The notes under the pieces were generated by a model. The model was not told the DNA's origin and did not search any database. It saw nothing but the letters and a program-made list of their open reading frames with translations. Of a stretch of 64,000 nt of DNA, positions 1,869 through 32,215 are shown piece after piece. Origin of the DNA: Elusimicrobiota bacterium (GTDB taxonomy: Bacteria; Elusimicrobiota; Elusimicrobia; UBA1565; UBA9628); assembly GCA_016212795.1 (NCBI GenBank), contig JACRDT010000007.1, forward strand, positions 299,627 to 363,626, written 5' to 3'. The translations under genes were made by a program, and so were the position numbers. The stretch's first letter is position 1, and every line of letters begins with the position of its first letter.

Positions 1869-4055
1869 TTACAGGTCGCCGGAGAGGACCGGGGTCTGGT
1901 CGCGGTTCTGCCGGCGCGCCGCGTCCTGCACCCTGGGCTTGAGGTACTGGTAGAGCCTGCCGGCGCGGGGCTTGGCCTCCCCTCCCCTGGCCTCCTCGTC
2001 GAGCCCTTTGAGGAAGTAGTAGGTGAAGATGCCGTGCCCCTCCGAGTCGAGCGTGCCCGTGATCTCCTCTCCCGACGCGGCCGCGAAGGCGACCAGCTTC
2101 CCCTTCGGGGCGAGCGCTCCCCCCACCTTCGCGACGAGCGGCCTGGCTCCCTTGGCGAGCACGGAGCGCCCTCCGCCGCCGGAGAAGCATGAGTCGAGCG
2201 CCGCCCAGACCCGCGCGGCCGGCAGGGAGGCGAGCGAGGCGAAGAGCTTGTTGACCGGGTAGGCCGTGGACTTCAGGAACCCCGGGTCCCCGTCCCACGG
2301 GATGAGGTAGGCCTCGCCCGTCTTGGGGTCCGGAGCCCCGTGCCCGGAGAAGTAGAAGAAGACCTCGCCGCCCTCGGGGACGTTCCGCGGGAGCCATTCC
2401 TCGACGAATTTTCGGAGGCCCGAGGCCGTCGCGTGCGGGCCCTTCAGGAGCACGATGTTCCTTTCCGGGAAGCCCAAGGCCAGGAGGTGCTCGCGCACGG
2501 CCTCGGCGTCCCTCTCCGCGAACTCGGCCTCGGGCAGGTCTTTGTACCTCTCCACGCCGACCACGAGCGCGAAGCCCTTGGGGTCCTCCTCGCGCCGATA
2601 CCCGGGCCGGTCCACGTCCGAGGAGAGCTTCTTCTCCGGGACGGACGGCGCGGGCGCTGCGGCCGGCGCGGGGGCCGCGGGCTGCCCCGCGGTCTTCAAG
2701 GAAGAGGCCGCCTTCTGGGCGTCGGCCACCTGCTCCTTGGTCATGAGGGCCTTGAGCCGCTCCATGCCCTGGCGTCCGCCGGCGTTGTCCTGGGCGGCCG
2801 AGAGCAGGTACCACTTGTAGGCCTCGACGTAGTCCTGCACGGCGCCCCAGCCGTTCTCGTAGAGGACGCCCAGCTCGGCCTGGGCCCAGGGGTTGCCCTG
2901 TTCCGCCGACTTGCGATACCACTTGGCCGCCTCGGCGTAGTCCTGCTTGACCCCCCAGCCGTGCTGGTGGCACAGCCCCATCCCTCGTTCGCCCCACTGG
3001 TTGCCCTGGTCCGCGGACTTGCGGTACCACTTGAACGTCGCCGTTGAGTCCTGCTTGACCCCCCACCCGTTCTGGTACATCCAGGCCAGCGCCTGCTGGC
3101 CGTTCCCATTGCCCTGGTCAGCGGAGCGGCTGAGCCACTTGGCCGCCTCGTCGTAGTCCTGCTTGACGCCCAACCCGTTCGAGTAGAGGTGGCCCAAGCT
3201 CGCCTGGGCATCGGCGTTGCCTTGGTCGGCGGACTTGCGCCACCACTTGGCGGCCTCGGCAAGGTCCTGCTTGACTCCCGCGCCGTTGTAGTAGAGGCCG
3301 CCGAGCTGGTTGAGCGAGAAGACATTCCCCTGCTCCGCCGACTTCCTGTACCACTTGACCGCTTCGTCGGCGTCTTTCCGAACGCCCAGGCCCGCTTCAT
3401 GGAGCCAGCCGAGCCCTCCCTGGCCGTGCTGGTTGCCTTGTTCGGCAGAGAGGCGGTACCATTTGGCAGCCTCGACATAGTCCGGCCTTACTCCCTGGCC
3501 GAGTTGGTAGAGGTAGCCGAGCCCGTGCTGGCCGCCGGCGTTGCCCTGGTCGGCGGCCTTGCGGAACCATTTGAGCGCCAGGGCGAAATCCTGCTTCACC
3601 CCCCACCCTGCCTGGTAGGCCCACCCGGCCCCGTTCTGGCCCCAGTCATGACCCCCCTCCGCGGACTTCAGGTACCATCTTCCGGCCTCGGCCAAGTCCT
3701 GCTTGACCCCCCAGCCGTTCTGGTAGAGCCAGCCGAGCCCGTTCATGGCGCCCGCGTTGCCCTGCGCGGCGGACTTCCGGAACAACTTCTCCGCTTGAGC
3801 GTAGTCCTTCCCGACCTCTTGGCCGTTGAGGTAGAGCGTGGCCAAGGTGCCTTGGGCGGCCGCGTCGCCCGCCTCGGCCGCGGGCCGCGCCAAGGAGAGG
3901 GCTTTCTTGTGGTCGCCCTTCAGGTAAGCCTGCCAGGCGTCGTCTCCCTGGCCCGCCCAAGAGGGGCAAGACGACAGCAAGGCCAAGGCGACCGTGGGGA
4001 GCAGCGTTGCCATGGACATGCCATGATGGTAGAACAATCCGCAGGGCCGCCGCAA
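1869..4055 (-). CDS. Sel1-repeat protein with C-terminal caspase-like (peptidase C14) domain, secreted or lipoprotein
   Basis: The C-terminal ~250 aa carry FYFSGHGAP (His) and ALDSCFSGGGG (Cys), a caspase-type His-Cys dyad. Upstream are ~12 Sel1-like 36-aa repeats (A.KWYRKSA.QGN..AQ..LG.LY..G.GV.QD). The N-terminus is signal-like with LLSSC (lipobox-like). The listed start is TTG at 4055; ATG alternatives are at 4019 and 4013. Only 6 nt downstream of the kinase gene stop. Confidence 0.85.
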   Translation of the reverse strand: MRRPCGLFYHHGMSMATLLPTVALALLSSCPSWAGQGDDAWQAYLKGDHKKALSLARPAAEAGDAAAQGTLATLYLNGQEVGKDYAQAEKLFRKSAAQGNAGAMNGLGWLYQNGWGVKQDLAEAGRWYLKSAEGGHDWGQNGAGWAYQAGWGVKQDFALALKWFRKAADQGNAGGQHGLGYLYQLGQGVRPDYVEAAKWYRLSAEQGNQHGQGGLGWLHEAGLGVRKDADEAVKWYRKSAEQGNVFSLNQLGGLYYNGAGVKQDLAEAAKWWRKSADQGNADAQASLGHLYSNGLGVKQDYDEAAKWLSRSADQGNGNGQQALAWMYQNGWGVKQDSTATFKWYRKSADQGNQWGERGMGLCHQHGWGVKQDYAEAAKWYRKSAEQGNPWAQAELGVLYENGWGAVQDYVEAYKWYLLSAAQDNAGGRQGMERLKALMTKEQVADAQKAASSLKTAGQPAAPAPAAAPAPSVPEKKLSSDVDRPGYRREEDPKGFALVVGVERYKDLPEAEFAERDAEAVREHLLALGFPERNIVLLKGPHATASGLRKFVEEWLPRNVPEGGEVFFYFSGHGAPDPKTGEAYLIPWDGDPGFLKSTAYPVNKLFASLASLPAARVWAALDSCFSGGGGRSVLAKGARPLVAKVGGALAPKGKLVAFAAASGEEITGTLDSEGHGIFTYYFLKGLDEEARGGEAKPRAGRLYQYLKPRVQDAARRQNRDQTPVLSGDL

Positions 4056-4061
4056 CGAGCC

Positions 4062-6554
4062 CTAAGCGGCAGCGTCGAGGAAGGCGGCGAGGAACGAGGC
4101 CGCGTCGGCGAACCTCCGCTCCGGACGAGGATTCAAGGCGCGGGCGAAGAACCCGTCGAGTCCGGGAGGGAGCGAGGGGACCTTGCTCGACACGGGGGCG
4201 AACTCGCCCCTGAGCTTGCTCCCGCGGACGTCCGACATCGCGAACGGGAACGCTCCGACCGTGATCTCGTAGGCCGTGAGCCCCAGGCTGCAGAGGTCGG
4301 ACCCGCGCGTGGCGGCCCCGAAGTCCTGCTCAGGCGCCATGTACTGAGGCGTGCCCGCGACGGAGGTCAGGGTGGGGTTCGAGAGGTCCTTCGACTGCCG
4401 CGCGATCCCGAAGTCCATGACCCGCACCGAGCCGTCGTCCGCCAGCATGATGTTCGACGGCTTGAGGTCCCGGTGCACGATCCCCTTGCCGTGCGCCCAA
4501 CCCACGGCCTCGCACGCGGCCTTGAGGATGCGGGAAGCCTCGGGAAGAGGGAACCCGCCCCTGGCCGCCAATATCTCGGCCAGGTTCTTTCCCTCCACGT
4601 AGTCGAACACGAGATAGAGCTCCCCTTCGTCGATGACCGCGTGGATCTCCACGATGTTGGGATGCCTGAGCTTGGCCACCAGCCGCGCCTCGCGAAGGAA
4701 GAGCTCCCGCTCCCCGGGCCTGCCGCAGAGCTCGCTGCGCAGCTGCTTGACCGCGACCTTGCGCTCCAAGGCCTGGTCGAAGGCCTCGTACACCACGCCC
4801 ATGCCGCCCCGGCCCACCTCGCGCGCCACCCGGTAGTTGGAGCCCAAGACCGTCCCGGGAGGCACCGTGCCTTGGGAGGCCAGGCCCGGCAAGGCCGCGG
4901 TCCGGGGAGTGGAGGGCTCCGGGGATGGATCAGCGTCCGCCCCGGCCGGAGAACGCCTGCGCGTGAGCTCCCGCGCAGCTGTCAGGCCGAACAGGATGAG
5001 CGCGGTCGAGGCACCCGCGACCCCAAGACGCATGGCCCAGCGCTTGAGCCCGGGTGCGTCGGAACCAGCGGCCAGGCCGGACGTGGACGAGCCTGACTCC
5101 CCGAGCCTCTTCCTCGCGGACGCGTAGAGAGGCTCGAAGGAAGCGTCGAGCTGAGCCGCTGCCCGATAGTCCTCGAGCGCTTCAGGCATGCGGCCGAGCC
5201 GCTCGGCAGCCTGCGCGCGATAGAGCCTGGCAAGGGCGTTGCTCGGAGCTAGACGCACGGCGGCATCAGCCGCTTCCAAGGCGCCTTGGTAGTCGCCCAT
5301 TTGCTGGAGCGCGTGGGACTTCTCGAGCAGGGCATCCACCGAATCCGGGGAGATGGCCAGGGCCGCTTCCGCGTCCGCAAGAGCCGCCTTGTGGTTCTTG
5401 AACTTGTTGCTGATCTGGGCGCGAAGAGCCAGGGCACGGGCATCCTTGGGAGCGGCGGCGATGGCCCGGGAAGAGTTGATGAGCGCGGCCTCGAGGTCCC
5501 CGAGTTCGGCCTTGCGCAGGGCCTGATGCATCATCTTCTCGGCAGGGCTGGAGGTGGGTGCGGCGGTCCCAGCCTCCGTCTTTGCCACGGCGGAGATTGA
5601 GGGATTACGCTCGTCGACCGAACGCCCCGAAGGAGGCTGGCCAGCCGCCCCGAAGCCCACCCGGTTCAAGTCGAACTTGGAACCTGACGCCGGCAGGGCG
5701 GACCTGAGGTGGGCCACGAGAGCCAGAGCGCGAGGCTCGTTCGCGTCGATGGCAAGGGATTTCTTGGCGCTCGCCAGAGCCTCCTCATTGCGTCCCTGGC
5801 CGGCGAGCGCTGTGGCGAGAAAGGCGTGGGACTCGGCGTCGTCAGGCTTCTGCCCTGTCGAGAGCCTCAGCACGCGCTCAGCCTCCTTCGGTTTCTTGGC
5901 GCCCAGGTACATCTCCCCTGCGCTCTTGAGGACCTCCGGACCGTGTTCACCCACGACAGGGGACAGGTTCTCCAGGTCTTGTCCCGCGGCCTGGTACAGG
6001 GACGAGGGGGTTTCCGAAGACTGCTGCTTCTTGTCCGAAGGGGAGGACCCGGTCAATGCGGGAGGCCCCATGTTGACGGAATCGATGTCTTGGCGCATCG
6101 TCTTGATCGAGTCCCGGGCTTCCTGGATAGATCGGGACACCAGCCATTTGGAATTGCCCAGGAGGGAACCCTCGGGCTCCACGATGTGGAAAGGGATTTT
6201 GTCGAACGCGGCCTCGGCCCGCGAAAAATCGTCCACGGCTCCCTCAAATCTCTTCAGAGCCGTCGCCATCCCCTCCAGATTCTTGGCAGTCTTGGCAGCC
6301 TCGAATTCCTCCGACAGCTCTTTCGTCACTTTGAAACAGTCTTTGACGGATTGATGGTACCGGAAGGCGCACTCGACCTGCACTCTCAATCTGCACGCCT
6401 CCTCCGTGACCAGGACGGACTTCTGACAAGCATCGCCCCCGGCCGAGGCAGGGGAAACGAGGAACAGGAGAAGGGCAAGCAGCACGGAGGAGAGTCTACA
6501 ATAACAGCGGATTCGAGAAGAAGGGTTGAGATCCCCGGGCCAGATGTTTCCCAA
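4062..6554 (-). CDS. Ser/Thr protein kinase with inverted topology: signal peptide, 4-Cys helical + TPR ectodomain, one TM, C-terminal kinase
   Basis: Hanks motifs in the last ~270 aa: GRGGMGVVYEA, VAVKQL, HRDLKPSNIM, DFGIA, GTPQYMAPE. One TM (LGVAGASTALILFGLTAA). TPR-like repeats sit N-terminal to it, with a hydrophobic signal-like N-terminus (VLLALLLFLVSPASA). The listed start is TTG 6554 with no SD, so the start is uncertain. Confidence 0.85.
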   Translation of the reverse strand: MGNIWPGDLNPSSRIRCYCRLSSVLLALLLFLVSPASAGGDACQKSVLVTEEACRLRVQVECAFRYHQSVKDCFKVTKELSEEFEAAKTAKNLEGMATALKRFEGAVDDFSRAEAAFDKIPFHIVEPEGSLLGNSKWLVSRSIQEARDSIKTMRQDIDSVNMGPPALTGSSPSDKKQQSSETPSSLYQAAGQDLENLSPVVGEHGPEVLKSAGEMYLGAKKPKEAERVLRLSTGQKPDDAESHAFLATALAGQGRNEEALASAKKSLAIDANEPRALALVAHLRSALPASGSKFDLNRVGFGAAGQPPSGRSVDERNPSISAVAKTEAGTAAPTSSPAEKMMHQALRKAELGDLEAALINSSRAIAAAPKDARALALRAQISNKFKNHKAALADAEAALAISPDSVDALLEKSHALQQMGDYQGALEAADAAVRLAPSNALARLYRAQAAERLGRMPEALEDYRAAAQLDASFEPLYASARKRLGESGSSTSGLAAGSDAPGLKRWAMRLGVAGASTALILFGLTAARELTRRRSPAGADADPSPEPSTPRTAALPGLASQGTVPPGTVLGSNYRVAREVGRGGMGVVYEAFDQALERKVAVKQLRSELCGRPGERELFLREARLVAKLRHPNIVEIHAVIDEGELYLVFDYVEGKNLAEILAARGGFPLPEASRILKAACEAVGWAHGKGIVHRDLKPSNIMLADDGSVRVMDFGIARQSKDLSNPTLTSVAGTPQYMAPEQDFGAATRGSDLCSLGLTAYEITVGAFPFAMSDVRGSKLRGEFAPVSSKVPSLPPGLDGFFARALNPRPERRFADAASFLAAFLDAAA

Positions 6555-25381: not shown

Positions 25382-27910
25382 ATGACGGGCGCAGCCGCCG
25401 CCGGCATCGCGCTTTCCCTGCCGGGTCTTCTGGCGGCGGACGGGCCGCCGTGCGGTTTCGACACGAAGGCGTTCGGCGCCGACTGCCTCGGCGATGAGGA
25501 GCGCGCCGGGCTGCCGGAGGATAGGCTCGTCAAGTGGGTGGAGTCCTGCTCGTCGAGCGTCGACGCGTCGAGGATGGCCTGCCACTCGGCCATCGAAAAG
25601 CTCGAGGCCGACTTCTCCGGCCCCCTGTCCGACGAGCAGCGCCGGGAGCTCGCCGACAAGATCGCGGCACACAAACGCACGGCCGACGAGCTCAGCGACG
25701 CCATCCAGCATTACCTCAGTCGGGAAGACACTCAAAAGGCGCTGGAAAGGCTTGAGAGCGGACACGTAACGCTCACGAACCAGACTCGACGCCTCGTCAC
25801 GGATACCGAGGCGGTATGGGACGCGGCGGATTTCGTGTCCGGCAAGGTCTCCGAATGGCTGCAGGGGCGCTCCGACAAGGGCCCGCGGGCCGAGAACACC
25901 GGCCTTCCGGTCTCCGGCGCAGGCCGGGTCGAGCCAGGGAAGGACCCTCCGTTGAAGACGGAGCCGGCCGCGCCCGACCCGGAGGAGCTCCGCCGCCTGG
26001 CGGGCAAGGAACAGCGCCTCGCCAAGAGCGGGGGCTCGCCCGAGGACCTGGCGGACTCTTGGAGGCTGCTGGGCCGGCAGTACGAGCACGCGGGCAGCAC
26101 GGAGGCGGCGAGCCGCGCCGTGGACCGCTCCATCGCGCTCTACCCCGGCAATCCCGACGCGTACGTGACCCGCAGCGGCGTGAGGCTCGCGGGCGGCGAC
26201 CGCGCCGGCGCCTTGAGGGATGCCAAGAAAGCCTTGGAACTCGACCCGGGCCATCCCAGGGCGCGCAAGCTGGAGGCTGCCCTGACCTCCGCGCTCGGCG
26301 GCGGGCTCGACGACAAACTCAGGCTCCGCCAGCCGGTCTTCGACTCCTCGGCCGGGCAGCCGGCGGCGGGGGCCGCGGGCGGCGTGGGCGGCGCGGGGGA
26401 TTGGCGCCGCCAGGGCGGCGGGGCGGGGCGGCCGAAGAAGGGGCCGCCGAGCCCGGCGGAACTGGCCGCGGAGGCGGCCAGGCGCAAGCTGCGCGCCGGC
26501 GACTTCACGGGCGCGATCGTGGACCTGACCCGCGCCATCCAGCTCGACCCGCGCAACCCCGCGTTCTGGCGCATGCGCGCCGAGGCGTCCAACCGCTCCG
26601 GCCATCACCGGGCCGCGGCGGAGGACGCGGACCGCGCCTTGAGCCTGGACCCGGACGATCCCCTGGCGCTGCTGGAGCGAGCGTACGCTCGTCTGGAGCA
26701 GGGCGACCCGGCGGGGGCGCTGGCGGACGCCAGGCGCGCCGCGGAGCTCTCGCCCGGGAACGCCCTGGCCCACCTCTACATGGCCATGGCGAAGGAGCGC
26801 CTGGGGGACGCCGCGGGAGCCGCCGCGGACTACGAGGCCGCGGCGAAGCTCGACGCGGCCCTGCGGGCGGTGGCGGACGAGGCCATGGCTCGGATGGGCG
26901 CCAAGTCCCCCCGGCCCGCGGCGCAGGGGCTCTGGCCCGGGCTGCGCCGCAGGGGGCCGATCCTCCCGCTGCTGGCGGTCGCGACGCTGCTGATCGGATT
27001 TCCGTTGACGCGCAAGCTGGCGGGGTGGACCACGCGGTCCCAGCCCGCGGAGCCTCCCCTCGAGCCCAGCCTGGCGACCTTGGCGGAACGCCCGGCGATC
27101 CTGGCTCCCGGCGCCATGGTGGGGAGCAACCTGTGCGTCGTCCGGGAGCTCGGGCGCGGCGGCATGGGAGTGGTCTACGAGGCCTTCGACACGGCCCTGC
27201 ACCGCTGCGTGGCGGTCAAGCAGCTGCGCCGAAACCTCTACCCGGCCCCCCAGGACTACGAGCGTTTCCTCCGGGAGGCGCGCGTGGTCGCCAAGATGAG
27301 GCACCCCAACATCGCGCGGATCCAATCGGTGGTGGAGGCGGAGGGAGACGCGTTCCTGGTGTTCGACCTGGTGCGCGGACGGACGCTGGACGCCGTCGTG
27401 AAGGAGAAGGGGCGGCTGGGCGCCGCCGAGGCGGGCCGGATCGTGGGCGAGGTCTGCGCCGCGCTCGAGCATGCCCACGGCCACGATGTGATCCACCGGG
27501 ACCTCAAGCCCGCCAACGTCATGCTCGACGACGGGGGCCGCTGCCTGGTGATGGACTTCGGCATCGCCCACCAGTCCCGCTCGGCGGGCAAGCAGACCTG
27601 GACCGCGGCGTGGGGCACGCCGCCGTACATGGCGCCGGAGCAGGAGCTCGGCAGGGTGTCGCTGGAGTCCGACCTGTTCGCCGTGGGCGTGATGGCCTAC
27701 GAGCTGCTGACGGGAAGCCTGCCGTTCAAGGGGCCGAACTTCCTGGCGGACAAGATGGAGCGCCGCTGGGCGCCCGTCACCCGGCTGGACCCCGGCCTGC
27801 CCGCGGCCCTCGACGCGTTCTTCGCCAAGGCGCTGGAGCCCGAGCCGGCCGCGCGCTTCAGGGGCGCGCGCGAACTCGGAGCGTCCTTCGCTGGAGCCGC
27901 GGGCGCGTAG
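25382..27910 (+). CDS. Ser/Thr protein kinase, paralog of 4062..6554 (4-Cys helical + TPR ectodomain, one TM, C-terminal kinase)
   Basis: Trimmed from the 1080-aa ORF, whose 5' part overlaps tatA and the YfiM-like gene on the other strand. Motifs: GRGGMGVVYEA, VAVKQL, HRDLKPANVM, DFGIAH, GTPPYMAPE. TM is ILPLLAVATLLIGFPL. The TPR block aligns with the first kinase. Start is uncertain: ATG 25382 chosen, 25277 possible. Confidence 0.8.
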   Translation: MTGAAAAGIALSLPGLLAADGPPCGFDTKAFGADCLGDEERAGLPEDRLVKWVESCSSSVDASRMACHSAIEKLEADFSGPLSDEQRRELADKIAAHKRTADELSDAIQHYLSREDTQKALERLESGHVTLTNQTRRLVTDTEAVWDAADFVSGKVSEWLQGRSDKGPRAENTGLPVSGAGRVEPGKDPPLKTEPAAPDPEELRRLAGKEQRLAKSGGSPEDLADSWRLLGRQYEHAGSTEAASRAVDRSIALYPGNPDAYVTRSGVRLAGGDRAGALRDAKKALELDPGHPRARKLEAALTSALGGGLDDKLRLRQPVFDSSAGQPAAGAAGGVGGAGDWRRQGGGAGRPKKGPPSPAELAAEAARRKLRAGDFTGAIVDLTRAIQLDPRNPAFWRMRAEASNRSGHHRAAAEDADRALSLDPDDPLALLERAYARLEQGDPAGALADARRAAELSPGNALAHLYMAMAKERLGDAAGAAADYEAAAKLDAALRAVADEAMARMGAKSPRPAAQGLWPGLRRRGPILPLLAVATLLIGFPLTRKLAGWTTRSQPAEPPLEPSLATLAERPAILAPGAMVGSNLCVVRELGRGGMGVVYEAFDTALHRCVAVKQLRRNLYPAPQDYERFLREARVVAKMRHPNIARIQSVVEAEGDAFLVFDLVRGRTLDAVVKEKGRLGAAEAGRIVGEVCAALEHAHGHDVIHRDLKPANVMLDDGGRCLVMDFGIAHQSRSAGKQTWTAAWGTPPYMAPEQELGRVSLESDLFAVGVMAYELLTGSLPFKGPNFLADKMERRWAPVTRLDPGLPAALDAFFAKALEPEPAARFRGARELGASFAGAAGA

Positions 27911-27961
27911 GCCGCGCCGCGGCGTGCGGGCCCGGCCGCGGGGTTCGGGGCCGCCGGCGGG

Positions 27962-30667
27962 TCACGGGCGGAGGAGGAGGTCCTCCCCGGTCTCCGAGCC
28001 GATGGTCATCTGGGGCGTCTGCTCGCGGTTGTCGCGCCGGGCCCGGTCCTTCACGTTGGGCAGCAGGAAGTCGTAGAGCGACTTCACCGTCACCTTCCCG
28101 TCGGCATCCTTGGCCGCGCCGTTGAGCCCCTTGAGCAGGTAGTACGTGAACAAGCCGTGGCCCTGGTCCGGCGCGGTCCCCGAGATCTCGTCGGACTGGG
28201 AGGCGCTGAAGGTGACCGTCTTCCCGGTGCCTGCCACCCCCAGCTCCAGCTTGCTGACCAAAGGCCGGGTCCCGGGCGCCAGGACCGAGCGGCCTCCGGC
28301 GCCGGAGAAGCAGGAATCCAGCGCGACGATCACCCGCCGGACCTTGAGCCCGTTGAGCGTGTCGTAGAGGCGCTTCACGGGGTAGGCGGTCTCGGCCAGG
28401 TATTTCGGGTCCCCGTCGGACGGCAGCAGGTAGGCCTGGCCGCTGACCGGGTCCGGGGCCCCGTGGCCGGAGTAATAGAAGAAGACGGTCGACTTCTCGT
28501 TGGCGTTGCGCGGGAGCCAGGTCTCGATGTGCTTGAGCAGGCCGGTCTTGGTGGCCTTGGCGCCCGTCAGGAAGACGATGTTGCGCTCGGGCACGCCCAG
28601 GCCGCGCAGGTGCTCCCGGACGGCCTCGGCGTCGCGCTCCGCGAACTGTGCGTCGGGGAGGTCGGAGTACTTCTCCACCCCGGCCACGATGGCCAGCTGG
28701 TCCGGGTCCTCCGGGACGGCGTACGCGGGCCGGTCCACCTCGGTGGAATACGACACCTGGACCGGGGCCTTGTCCTCGACCTTGCTCACGGTGGCCTTCC
28801 GGATGGCCTCGTCCATCATGCGCTGCATCTCGTCCTTGTCCACGGACGGGGAGGAGGGCGTCGAGCCGCGCTTGGGCTTCTCCAGGCCCTCCTGGTAGCG
28901 GACCAGGAGGCGCACGATGTCCCCCTGGCCCTGGACCTCGGCCATGAGCGCGGCGGTCTGCTTTTTGCGGTTCTTGATCTTCATGTCGGCCCCGTGCAGG
29001 AGGAGAGCCTTGACCAGGTCCACCCGGCCGTCGCGCGCGGCCAGCATGAGCGCCGTCAGGCCCAGGGTCTTCTCCTTGGCGTCGATCTCCTTGCCGGAGG
29101 CCAGGACGAGCCCGACCAGGTCCGCGTCCCCGTTGACCACCGCGTGCATGAGCGGGGTCCAGCCGGATTCCTCCGTCCCCGCCGTCCGGGTCCCGCCGCG
29201 GATGAGCTCCTTGGCGATGTCGTTCTTCTTGAGCGAGATGGCGTGCACGAGTGCGGTCCGGCCCCGCGCGTCCTTCCGGTTGACGTCGGCCCCCTTGGCC
29301 AGCAGGGCGCGGACGATCTCGAGGTCCCCGTGTTGGACCGCGAGCATCAGGGGCGTCAGCCCTTCCTGGTACGTCCCCCCCTGGTCGGCGCCTCGCCGCG
29401 CCAGCTCGAGCGCGATCTCGCCCTTGCTCCCCAGCAGCGCCTGCATGAGCGCGGTGCGGCCTGCCTCGTCGCGCGCGCCGCTGTCGGCCTTCTTCTCCAG
29501 CATGAGCCCGGCCAGCTCGGGGTCGCCGCGCTCGACCGCGAGCATCAGGGTCGTGCGCCCTTTCTCCGAGCCTCCGAGCTCGGCCCCGCCCCGCACCAGC
29601 TCCTTGGCGGCGTCGATGCGGTTGTTGAGGAGGGCCCACATCACCGCGGTCCGGCCGTCGGCGTCCTTGGCCTTGGTGTCGGGCTTGCGCTCCATCGCGG
29701 TCTTGACCACGGCGGCGTCGCAGTGCCGCACCGCCATCATCAGGGTCGTCTCCTTGGTGTCGCCCAACCCCGAGATGTCCGCGCCGCCGCGCAGGAGCTC
29801 GAGGGAGACCGCCTTGTCGCCGGCCAAAAGAGCCTGCATGAGCGCCGTGTGCTTCCTGGCATCCCGGCGCTCGGTGTCGGCCCCTTTCTCCAGCAGGATC
29901 CTCACGATCGCCGGGTCCGAGCGCTTGACCGCGTACATGAGGGCGGTGCGGTCCTGCCCGTCGCGCCGCGCGGCGTCGGCTCCCCGGGCGAGCATCTCCT
30001 GCAGGACGGGGGGTTCCGCGAGCTCGGCGGCCAGCATCAAGGCGTCCCGGCCGCCGTCGGTCTCCCCTCCGAGGTCGGCGCGGTTTTTCAAGAGCAGCAG
30101 GGCGAGGTCCCCTTTCTTCTGGAGGATGGCCTGCATCAGGGGGGTGGCCCCGCCCCTGTCCTTGGCCCTGGTGTCGGAGCGCCTCTCCAGCATGGCGCGT
30201 ACCAGGTCCGCGTCGCCGAGCTCGATGGCGAGGTGGAGCGTGCTGCGGCCGTCCTTGTATTTGCCGTTGACCTCGGCCGCCGAGGCGGCCAGGAGCTTGG
30301 CCGTGGCGAGCAGGTCAGGCTCGGGGCGGGCGGCTCGCGCCAGCGCCCGCATGAAGACGGTCTGGGACTCGGCGTCCTTGGCGTTGAGCTTGGCCCCCCT
30401 GTCGAGCAGCAGCCGGAAGACTTGGGCGTGGGAGGCGGGCGGGGCGGCCCAGACGAGTTGGTGGAGAGGCGGCAGGCCGCCGGCGTTCCTGGCGTTCGGG
30501 TCCGCGCCCGCCTCCAGGAGACGTTTGACCTCGTCGACCTGGCCATCGGCGACGGCGCGGGGAAGCAGGTCCTTGGCCGGCTTGGCGGGCTTGGCGGCGA
30601 CGGCGGGCGGGATCGCCCCCGCGAGCAACAGCGGCACGATGAAGAGGACCGGGCGCATCGATGGCAT
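27962..30667 (-). CDS. ankyrin-repeat protein with C-terminal caspase-like (peptidase C14) domain, secreted
   Basis: Signal peptide MPSMRPVLFIVPLLLAGAIPPAVAA. A long array of 33-aa ankyrin-like repeats (G.T.LM.A...G....V..LL..GAD....D). The C-terminal domain has FYYSGHGAP and ALDSCFSGAGG and is clearly paralogous to the 1869..4055 C-terminus (VDRP.Y...EDP....V.GVE.Y.DLP.A.FAERDAEAVREHL). Confidence 0.85.
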   Translation of the reverse strand: MPSMRPVLFIVPLLLAGAIPPAVAAKPAKPAKDLLPRAVADGQVDEVKRLLEAGADPNARNAGGLPPLHQLVWAAPPASHAQVFRLLLDRGAKLNAKDAESQTVFMRALARAARPEPDLLATAKLLAASAAEVNGKYKDGRSTLHLAIELGDADLVRAMLERRSDTRAKDRGGATPLMQAILQKKGDLALLLLKNRADLGGETDGGRDALMLAAELAEPPVLQEMLARGADAARRDGQDRTALMYAVKRSDPAIVRILLEKGADTERRDARKHTALMQALLAGDKAVSLELLRGGADISGLGDTKETTLMMAVRHCDAAVVKTAMERKPDTKAKDADGRTAVMWALLNNRIDAAKELVRGGAELGGSEKGRTTLMLAVERGDPELAGLMLEKKADSGARDEAGRTALMQALLGSKGEIALELARRGADQGGTYQEGLTPLMLAVQHGDLEIVRALLAKGADVNRKDARGRTALVHAISLKKNDIAKELIRGGTRTAGTEESGWTPLMHAVVNGDADLVGLVLASGKEIDAKEKTLGLTALMLAARDGRVDLVKALLLHGADMKIKNRKKQTAALMAEVQGQGDIVRLLVRYQEGLEKPKRGSTPSSPSVDKDEMQRMMDEAIRKATVSKVEDKAPVQVSYSTEVDRPAYAVPEDPDQLAIVAGVEKYSDLPDAQFAERDAEAVREHLRGLGVPERNIVFLTGAKATKTGLLKHIETWLPRNANEKSTVFFYYSGHGAPDPVSGQAYLLPSDGDPKYLAETAYPVKRLYDTLNGLKVRRVIVALDSCFSGAGGRSVLAPGTRPLVSKLELGVAGTGKTVTFSASQSDEISGTAPDQGHGLFTYYLLKGLNGAAKDADGKVTVKSLYDFLLPNVKDRARRDNREQTPQMTIGSETGEDLLLRP

Positions 30668-31302
30668 GACATCCCCCAGGGAGGCGGCAGGCGACAGCGG
30701 CGCCCCCTGAAGATAGGATAGCGCCCGAGGACCCCGGCGTCAAGCCGGCCTGTAGCGGCCGCGGGGCTCGACCTCACTCACTTTTCGGCGGGCCTGACTT
30801 TGGGCAAGCTTCCCGGCCTCCCTGGGCGAGGGCCGCGACGAGGCGGCCAGTGAGATCGAGGTGCTGATCGCGTGTGCATGCATTCCGCTGGTTCCGGGCC
30901 GAGGAAAATGACGTTTCCATGGATTCTACTTCAGCGATGAAAGAGAAATGACTGGAAACGCAATCAGGTCTTTGTCAGACAGTACGCGTTGGTGCGTCAT
31001 GAGGCTAATGGCCCACCTGGATTTGGGTCCAATGACAGTCTTGTCCGAGGCACCCGATGTTGAAGTCAGCTGATTCTCCGTCACTTACAGCGCCGAGCTA
31101 GTCTGGTTCCTGCCACGTGGAATCCAGGCAGAAACGTAGTCGCCATAAGCGGGCATCCGCGACATAGCAGGATATCGTGAGTCCCGCCCCCCCCAGGAGG
31201 TTCGCCCTCCGAACCGCCATTGGGATATGTTACCATGAGAAAATCGACCATGAACGACCGGGGTCTGGGCGGGAAAGGCGGGGTCCTCGATGCTGGTCAA
31301 AC

Positions 31303-31334
31303 GGCCGGGCGAAGCCCGGCTGTGCCGGGCTTTT
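31303..31334 (+). terminator. intrinsic-terminator-like hairpin with a competing upstream arm (three-arm attenuator-like arrangement)
   Basis: GCCGGGC (31304-31310) gaa GCCCGGC (31314-31320) tgt GCCGGGC (31324-31330) TTTT (31331-34). The middle arm can pair with either neighbour. The downstream pairing is an 8-bp GC stem followed by a T-run, 41 nt before ATG 31376. Confidence 0.35.
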
Positions 31335-31375
31335 CAGTCGGCTGGAAGGGGATCAATCGCTAGGGAACCGGGCGC

Positions 31376-32215
31376 ATGAATCGGACGATCGACCTGATAC
31401 TCCTGACGCTCGGCTGTCTATCCATCGGTGCGGGAACATACGTCATCGCCGCCGATTCCCCGCTCCTAGAGGGCATCGGCGGGATGGGCGTCGTGTTCAA
31501 GGGGTGGGACCGGGAGCTCGAGCGGGACGTCGCAATCAAGCGGATGCATGGCGCCATCGCCAAGGACGCGAAGGCCCGGGACCAGTTCCTCCGGGAGGCC
31601 CGCACCGTCGCCAAGCTCAACCACCCCTACATCGTGGCCATCCACGACATCGTCCGGTCCGCAGACGACCTCTACCTCGTCTTTGAGCACGTCGACGGGG
31701 AGACCATTTCGGACATCCTGGTCAGCAGCAAAAAGCTCGAACCCAAGGAGTGCGTCCGCATCCTGCGCTTCGTCTGCGAGGCCCTGGCTCACGCACACGA
31801 GAACGGCGTCATCCATCGCGACCTCAAGCCCGCCAACATCATGATGAGCAGGCGCGGCTACGTGAAGGTCATGGATTTCGGCATCGCCAGGCACCTCTCG
31901 GCCGGCCACAAGTTGGGAGAGGGGACCATAGCGGGCACCCTGCCCTACATGGCCCCCGAACAGCACGACGGGAAGTCCTCGGCGCAGTCGGATGTCTACT
32001 CCCTGGGCGTCGTGGCCTACGAGTTCCTCATGGGCGAGCGCCCATTCTCGGGCGTCCACTGCCACAGGGACAAGGAGGCGGAACGCTTCCCTCCCCTGTC
32101 CAAGAACCTTCCTGAAGGGCTCTCCCGCCTAGTCATCGCCTGCCTCAAGAAGGACCCGGCGGCCAGGCCCCAGGGGATGAGCCGGGTGATGGCCGGGCTG
32201 GTGGCGGCCCGCTGA
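31376..32215 (+). CDS. short Ser/Thr protein kinase: N-terminal TM + kinase domain only
   Basis: LILLTLGCLSIGAGTYVIAA, then GIGGMGVVFKG, VAIKRM, HRDLKPANIM, DFGIAR, GTLPYMAPE. It has no ectodomain and a shortened N-lobe lead-in. Confidence 0.75.
   Translation: MNRTIDLILLTLGCLSIGAGTYVIAADSPLLEGIGGMGVVFKGWDRELERDVAIKRMHGAIAKDAKARDQFLREARTVAKLNHPYIVAIHDIVRSADDLYLVFEHVDGETISDILVSSKKLEPKECVRILRFVCEALAHAHENGVIHRDLKPANIMMSRRGYVKVMDFGIARHLSAGHKLGEGTIAGTLPYMAPEQHDGKSSAQSDVYSLGVVAYEFLMGERPFSGVHCHRDKEAERFPPLSKNLPEGLSRLVIACLKKDPAARPQGMSRVMAGLVAAR

Follow-up and report, generated by a model that had tools for sequence, protein, structure and literature searches.

An ankyrin-repeat caspase-like protease and a TPR receptor kinase as convergent neighbours in an Elusimicrobiota genome: probably not a dedicated two-gene system

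In a 64,000-nucleotide stretch of DNA from an Elusimicrobiota bacterium (assembly GCA_016212795.1, contig JACRDT010000007.1, positions 299,627 to 363,626 of the forward strand; hereafter the window), a gene for a receptor-like Ser/Thr kinase (K2) and a gene for an ankyrin-repeat protease of the caspase-like peptidase family C14 (C2) run towards each other and end 51 nt apart. Elsewhere in the window another kinase (K1) and another C14 protein (C1) lie side by side, and the original prediction regarded K1/C1 and K2/C2 as modules 1 and 2 of a duplicated kinase-plus-caspase unit whose protein-binding scaffold had been exchanged in the manner of conflict or surveillance systems. The explanation that we consider likely is a different one, namely that K2 and C2 come independently from two expanded Elusimicrobiota families and were made convergent neighbours by local history. 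On this view C2 is an exported metacaspase-like protease guided by its ankyrin repeats, and K2 is a TPR (tetratricopeptide repeat) receptor kinase. K2 and C2 probably do not form a dedicated system of two genes and would have no functional link.

The host metagenome-assembled genome (MAG), here G000, comprises 4.18 Mb in 50 contigs at ~90% completeness and ~70% G+C, and the window is part of its contig C42. Other numbered genomes (G001, G002, G004, G012, G014 and so on) are related Elusimicrobiota, whose source MAGs come from groundwater, soil and lakes.

Probably separate histories of the kinase and the protease

The similarities from which the idea of a duplicated module arose are real and well above what chance would give. 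K2 aligns with K1 along the TPR block, the membrane helix and the kinase domain (40% identity over 666 aa, E=6e-117), the TPR stretch originally quoted included; the stops of K2 and its convergent neighbour are indeed 51 nt apart, K2 ending at 27910 and the C2 stop beginning at 27962 on the opposite strand; and the C14 domains of C2 and C1 are paralogous, at 58% identity over 248 aa in a gapless alignment (E=1e-95) that holds all of the quoted motifs. C2 likewise carries an ankyrin array (Ank_2 E=4.5e-91) in place of the 10 Sel1 stretches of C1, and the two scaffolds cannot be aligned. This degree of C14 similarity is typical of the family, with mean column identity of 63-69% in two family alignments, and denotes no special closeness of the two modules.

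When a tree is built from the C14 domains of this genome alone, C1 groups with C2 (support 93/86) and an unpaired paralogue from contig C7 branches next to the two, a sisterhood that was rejected as a product of omitting relatives and that is lost when these are added. C2 then falls with its orthologues from G004 and G014 inside a clade from other genera, C1 groups with a protein of G002 that is itself in tandem with another C14 gene, and monophyly of C1 and C2 is rejected (approximately unbiased [AU] test, p=0.02). Among the kinases of the genome, the sister of K2 is an unpaired kinase (C42:208254-210734; support 99/94), and the clade of five to which the two belong also contains K1. Because monophyly of C1 and C2 is rejected and the kinase tree lacks resolution, co-duplication of a kinase-plus-caspase unit is unsupported, and the caspase tree rejects it.

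The pairing itself is absent where C2 can be followed into other genomes. Full-length C2 orthologues are present in two other genera (74% identity over 902 aa in G004, 58% over 895 aa in G014), and no kinase is found near them on the 15.5-kb G004 contig or in the 19.6 kb examined from G014. These two loci have no other gene in common; that of G004 shares no match with the window, and that of G014 has a single match at the level of open reading frames (ORFs), ~5 kb from its C14 gene. More broadly, the fetched loci, when pooled, hold 125 distinct C14 genes of the subfamily from other genomes, none of which has a kinase as direct neighbour against ~2.3 expected by chance; 81 of them are flanked by 3 kb or more of sequence each way and are thus assessable, and in a single case a kinase lies inside that distance, 2.3 kb away. 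These relatives were found with an alignment of the C14 domains, a single-protein query with K1 having given none. From the kinase side, the closest match to K2 has 45% identity among 40 related genomes and 43% in a collection of 5.8 billion proteins, in which K2 is a singleton, and K1 is likewise without close relatives. Given that no relative of K2 in that collection exceeds 43% identity, conservation of the K2-C2 pairing is judged here over longer evolutionary distances.

Within the genome, a six-frame search of the contigs returned 21 ORFs with a C14 domain and ~35 with a kinase domain, and the copies beyond the two modules are for the most part unpaired (18 of the 21 C14 genes and ~31 of the 35 kinases, the paired kinases being K1, K2, K3 on the other side of C2, and one on contig C22); the scaffolds of the C14 copies further include WD40, Kelch, HlyD, CARDB and FGE. 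The original prediction named two outcomes that would refute it, many unpaired copies elsewhere in the genome and independent duplication of kinases and caspase domains. Both are seen, the second in that C1 and C2 are not sisters and that the pairing is missing from the C2 orthologues, and the duplicated and diversified module is not supported.

Architecture of K2, C2 and their surroundings

From N- to C-terminus, K2 consists of a signal-like N-terminus, a TPR block, a single membrane helix and a Ser/Thr kinase (Table 1). An alternative in-frame start, GTG 25355, adds MRPGYRAWG and gives a more convincing signal peptide, MRPGYRAWGMTG... The TPR block would lie in the periplasm. The kinase match (PF00069, aa 587-786, 157 bits against a cut-off of 31.7), together with all of the motifs, identifies the domain as Hanks-type; it would be cytoplasmic and is apparently active. 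The model for PknB/Stk1 PASTA kinases, NF033483, matches K2 in its kinase part at 236 bits, under the cut-off of 450, and K2 has no PASTA domains. Placing the ectodomain first is the norm in this genome, since the kinase domain is C-terminal in 23 of its 31 full kinase domains, ~17 of these with a membrane helix 30-60 aa upstream. The layout customary in bacteria, with the kinase followed by the helix and then the ectodomain, is seldom found here; C33:274219-282777 and C42:208254-210734 are further examples of the ectodomain-first form.

Both kinases of the two modules also contain a C-x10-C...C-x10-C pattern (K2 aa 24-67, at 25451-25582; K1 aa 43-73), which, of 22 kinases of the genome, only these two show, as does 1 of 24 relatives. 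As a docking module shared by K1 and K2 the pattern was discarded, the N-terminal 200 aa of the two proteins not being significantly similar (E=1.3).

C2 begins with MPSMRPVLFIVPLLLAGAIPPAVAAKP, and its signal peptide would be cleaved between MPSMRPVLFIVPLLLAGAIPPAVA and AK, which places the protease, by prediction, outside the cytoplasm. A ~40-aa linker joins the ankyrin array to the C14 domain. In the repeats, T(A/P)LM replaces the canonical TPLH, and two repeat types seem to alternate. The Peptidase_C14 model PF00656 matches C2 at 46.6 bits (aa 657-888) and C1 at 46.9 bits, against a cut-off of 21.4. The catalytic dyad consists of His735 in YYSGHG (codon 28463-28465) and Cys786 in DSCFSG (codon 28310-28312), and in an alignment of 72 family members both residues are invariant at a mean column identity of 63%. 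Some 12 residues before the first C14 strand stands a further motif, S-D-V-D-x-P-x-Y, that is strongly conserved throughout the family (C2 aa 641-656, 28700-28747).

A model of the C14 domain made with AlphaFold2 on the 72-sequence alignment has a pLDDT (mean per-residue confidence) of 89.7 and a pTM (predicted template modelling score) of 0.90. Its top Foldseek matches are the MALT1 paracaspase, Geobacter GSU0716 (3BIJ) and metacaspases (template modelling [TM] scores ~0.67-0.69, E ~1e-12 to 1e-10), with animal caspases lower in the list; matches to all of these at a probability of 1.00 and TM scores of ~0.6-0.69 show that the model has a caspase-haemoglobinase fold. By sequence, the nearest protein in the PDB is the yeast metacaspase Yca1, a weak match. 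The Asp of D-S-C-F-S-G, two positions before the catalytic Cys, is kept in at least 90% of the 72 members. Metacaspases have Asp at that position and caspases Gln (Q-A-C), and MALT1 and the metacaspases cleave after basic residues; judging from this Asp and from the nearest structures, C2 most likely cleaves after Arg or Lys.

Taken together, these features outline how the two proteins may work. C2 would be carried by its Sec signal peptide to the periplasm or the cell surface, where the solenoid of ~16 ankyrin repeats would bind a protein target and the C14 domain, through His735 and Cys786, would cut what is bound, most likely after Arg or Lys. K2, for its part, would hold its TPR ectodomain outside the cell membrane, which it would cross with one helix, and its kinase in the cytoplasm.

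Table 1. Coordinates and evidence for the genes, domains and kinase-C14 pairs discussed (positions are those of the window unless a contig is named)
Feature	Position or arrangement	Strand	Basis or remark
K2, receptor-like Hanks-type Ser/Thr kinase, 842 aa	25382..27910	+	ORF; Pfam Pkinase and TPR families; similarity to K1
K2 signal-like hydrophobic N-terminus	25382..25441	+	sequence; weak from ATG 25382, better with GTG 25355; putative export and cleavage
K2 TPR block, aa ~217-490	26030..26851	+	Pfam TPR_2, TPR_17, TPR_14, TPR_16 and others; aligns with K1 TPR block
K2 transmembrane helix, aa 525-543, GPILPLLAVATLLIGFPLT	26954..27010	+	Kyte-Doolittle mean 1.86-2.01
K2 kinase domain, intact G-loop (GRGGMG), VAVK, HRDLKPAN, DFG, APE	27128..27889	+	Pfam; motif reading
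Intergenic gap between convergent stops, 51 nt, GC-rich	27911..27961		sequence
C2, ankyrin-repeat C14 (metacaspase-like) protease, predicted exported, 901 aa	27962..30667	-	ORF; Pfam; full-length orthologues
C2 C14 domain, aa 641-901	27965..28747	-	PF00656; AlphaFold2 model; Foldseek
C2 ankyrin array, ~16 repeats (by eye), aa ~35-600	28868..30565	-	Pfam Ank_2 E=4.5e-91 (9 stretches), Ank E=9.6e-61
C2 Sec-type signal peptide, aa 1-24, AVA/AK	30596..30667	-	sequence; hydrophobic 12-mer score 2.73; putative cleavage
K3, short transmembrane-plus-kinase protein	31376..32215	+	Pfam Pkinase, 188 bits
K1, module-1 kinase	4062..6554	-	Pfam; alignment with K2
C1, module-1 Sel1-repeat C14 protein	1869..4055	-	Pfam: 10 Sel1 stretches and C14
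C1/K1 pair	K1 upstream of C1, gap 4-42 nt	same strand	operon-like
C2/K2 pair	convergent, gap 51 nt	opposite strands	
C22 pair (L154, G000:C22:11838-18215)	ankyrin-C14 gene (891 aa), then 25 nt, then 1227-aa transmembrane kinase (N-terminal ~900 aa free of Pfam matches, then membrane helix and C-terminal kinase domain)		operon-like

Around these genes, a search of the 51-nt gap for terminator-like sites gave none, and the fold predicted for it does not surpass that of shuffled sequence (z=-0.21). Kinase genes flank C2 on both sides, K3 being divergent from it at a distance of ~700 bp (30668-31375) and belonging, in the kinase tree, to a clade other than that of K1 and K2. The probable start of C1 is an ATG 36 nt inside its ORF, after which a lipobox-like LSSC follows. 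The neighbours recognised by Pfam in the window include a ChaN-like haem-binding protein and a MacB-type ABC transporter and are housekeeping or envelope genes.

A near-constant protease domain with exchanged scaffolds

What does hold is a property of the protease family alone. The close C14 subfamily of this genome numbers nine proteins with a C-terminal C14 domain, whose scaffolds by Pfam are ankyrin (twice, in C2 and in the contig C22 protein), Sel1 (C1), Kelch, WD40 (twice), HlyD-like, CARDB/Ig and one that is unrecognised; a second group has double WD40 propellers, and in a third the C14 domain stands at the N-terminus and is followed at the C-terminus by FGE-sulfatase or, in a single protein, by Sel1. 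The protease domain is thus near-constant (55-83% identity) and the N-terminal binding module, whether ankyrin, Sel1, Kelch, WD40, HlyD-like or CARDB, is exchanged family-wide. Conserved catalysis with a swapped scaffold, as the original prediction had it, therefore stands for the C14 family by itself, throughout that family, and fails for a duplicated kinase-plus-caspase module. The possibility that the two ankyrin-C14 paralogues of the genome share one array through domain shuffling was also considered and set aside, their arrays sharing only 28% identity, as is ordinary for such repeats.

Export appears to be a family trait as well, with signal-like N-termini on most C14 paralogues of the genome and on 88 of 116 relatives. 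The subfamily is very large in this bacterial family and order, where a genome can have up to 32 matches, and a scan of species genomes yielded at least 555 relatives. In relatives, 3-5 genes of the C14 subfamily cluster on a contig (G038:C107:5486-10318; G003:C18:1856-38884; G001:C13:173920-177024), some of them tandem-close, and such clusters indicate expansion by local duplication. One tandem copy (L046:11022-11753, G039:C22), beside an intact one, has its catalytic His replaced by Tyr (AGYGAPD) and may be a pseudo-protease.

Adjacency in this genome, competing explanations and known systems

Several observations weigh against the reading of K2 and C2 as independent neighbours. Three of the 21 C14 genes touch a kinase, against 0.38 adjacent pairs expected when 21 C14 genes and 35 kinases are placed randomly over ~3800 gene slots (P(≥3) ~0.007, or P(≥4) ~0.0006 with K3 as a fourth pair, values inflated by ascertainment in that the window was picked because of its pairing). 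Two of the three pairs, C1/K1 and the C22 pair, are co-directional and operon-like with short gaps (4-42 nt and 25 nt), and all three paired C14 proteins have alpha-solenoid scaffolds (ankyrin, ankyrin and Sel1). Among 24 K1/K2-like kinases at 20 loci of relatives, one has a C14 neighbour, in G012, where the C14 gene is followed by the kinase across a 37-nt gap. Finally, monophyly of K1 and K2 is not rejected, either within the genome, where the result is borderline (AU p=0.058), or with relatives, where the tree leaves it undecided (AU p=0.45). Because none of the 125 relatives has a kinase as direct neighbour, however, the excess adjacency is confined to this genome, and it amounts to a weak, lineage-specific signal. 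Separately, TPR receptor kinases stand in tandem triplets at L053 (G020:C2:216170-223280) and at G000:C33:274219-282777, a self-clustering for which the random-placement null does not account.

The excess could be explained by a lineage-specific periplasmic pair, in which C2 binds or cleaves the TPR ectodomain of K2, or makes its ligand, and so turns proteolysis outside the cell into phosphorylation inside it, with the C1/K1 and C22 pairs acting alike. K2 and C2 would each present domains in the same compartment, and to this may be added the three or four adjacencies, the operon-like layout of two pairs and the independent pair in G012. We nonetheless regard such a pair as rather unlikely. K2 and C2 are convergent and therefore not co-transcribed; no kinase lies near the C2 orthologues of two genera or directly beside any related C14 gene; and kinase clades, C14 clades and gene orders differ between the pairs, the C22 pair having its kinase and its C14 protein each from other clades and the opposite gene order. 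A broader version, which we hold to be improbable, is that alpha-solenoid C14 proteases have been recruited repeatedly as extracellular partners of ectodomain-first kinases, where they would cleave the TPR ectodomain or release a ligand, so that the adjacencies in this genome and the G012 pair would be independent recruitments. The logic would be comparable to that of plant metacaspase-4, which frees the Pep1 peptide for the PEPR receptor kinases.

Two further readings leave the kinase with a different role or with none. A conflict or surveillance system, in which a duplicated kinase-plus-caspase cassette exchanges its recognition scaffold to follow a phage or competitor, would suit the combination of a constant catalytic domain with variable binding scaffolds across the family, and a library of defence systems (PADLOC) does return matches to the PD-T4-6 kinase, to caspases and to ankyrin proteins. 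These matches are generic domain matches, however, and the model for the EACC1-associated caspase of conflict systems (NCBIfam NF047832, cut-off 140) scores C2 at 90.7 bits and C1 at 69.4 bits. Since C1 and C2 are not sisters, their pairing with kinases is not conserved, the signal peptide puts the protease outside the cytoplasm, the neighbours are such as ChaN and MacB in place of defence genes, and the locus lacks any NTPase, sensor or effector partner, this reading is largely refuted on the criteria of the original prediction itself, and we give it almost no credence. Scarcely more credible is that C2 is a secreted effector against a eukaryotic host or prey, the kinase being irrelevant. Bacterial ankyrin proteins are often effectors, C2 has a signal peptide, and its ankyrin array gives sub-threshold matches to models of Legionella Ank effectors; yet these matches fall far short of their cut-offs and are due to general ankyrin-repeat similarity, many scaffolds of the C14 family are not ankyrin, the related MAGs are from groundwater, soil and lake, and no secretion-system genes are seen beside C2.

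As a two-gene system, K2 and C2 are of little importance, the pairing being local to this genome and not a conserved unit. Were a protease-kinase partnership true, it would add a new type of transmembrane signalling in bacteria and offer a first way into the function of exported caspase homologues in these organisms. The wider view has modest value: soil and groundwater Elusimicrobiota carry very large families of predicted exported caspase-like proteases with freely exchanged scaffolds, and also ectodomain-first receptor kinases.

Comparison with known systems places each partner near, and at the same time apart from, well-studied proteins. K2 has the same catalytic domain and full motif set as the Hanks-type kinases of the PknB/Stk1 type, whereas its order is reversed, the kinase following the ectodomain, and its ectodomain is made of TPRs instead of PASTA domains. 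For the C14 domain of C2, the best structural matches are MALT1, GSU0716, AtMC9, Yca1 and TbMCA2, and the metacaspases among them also have the Asp before the Cys, but identity is only 15-20%; MALT1 and the metacaspases are moreover cytosolic with other accessory domains, and GSU0716 is without an ankyrin array. The closest parallel to the family as a whole is offered by the orthocaspases, in which a C14 domain with the His-Cys dyad is similarly joined to repeat scaffolds. The survey of Asplund-Samuelsson et al. (2012; PMC3501461) lists WD40, TPR and Sel1 as the commonest partners of prokaryotic metacaspase-like C14 domains and reports that many members have an N-terminal helix, possibly a signal peptide; its main text leaves ankyrin unmentioned, and it found no metacaspases in the Elusimicrobia genomes available in 2012. 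The exchange of scaffolds described here agrees with that survey, while the Elusimicrobiota family differs from it in being hugely expanded (up to 32 copies per genome), in being mostly predicted to be exported, and in carrying its C14 domain at the C-terminus.

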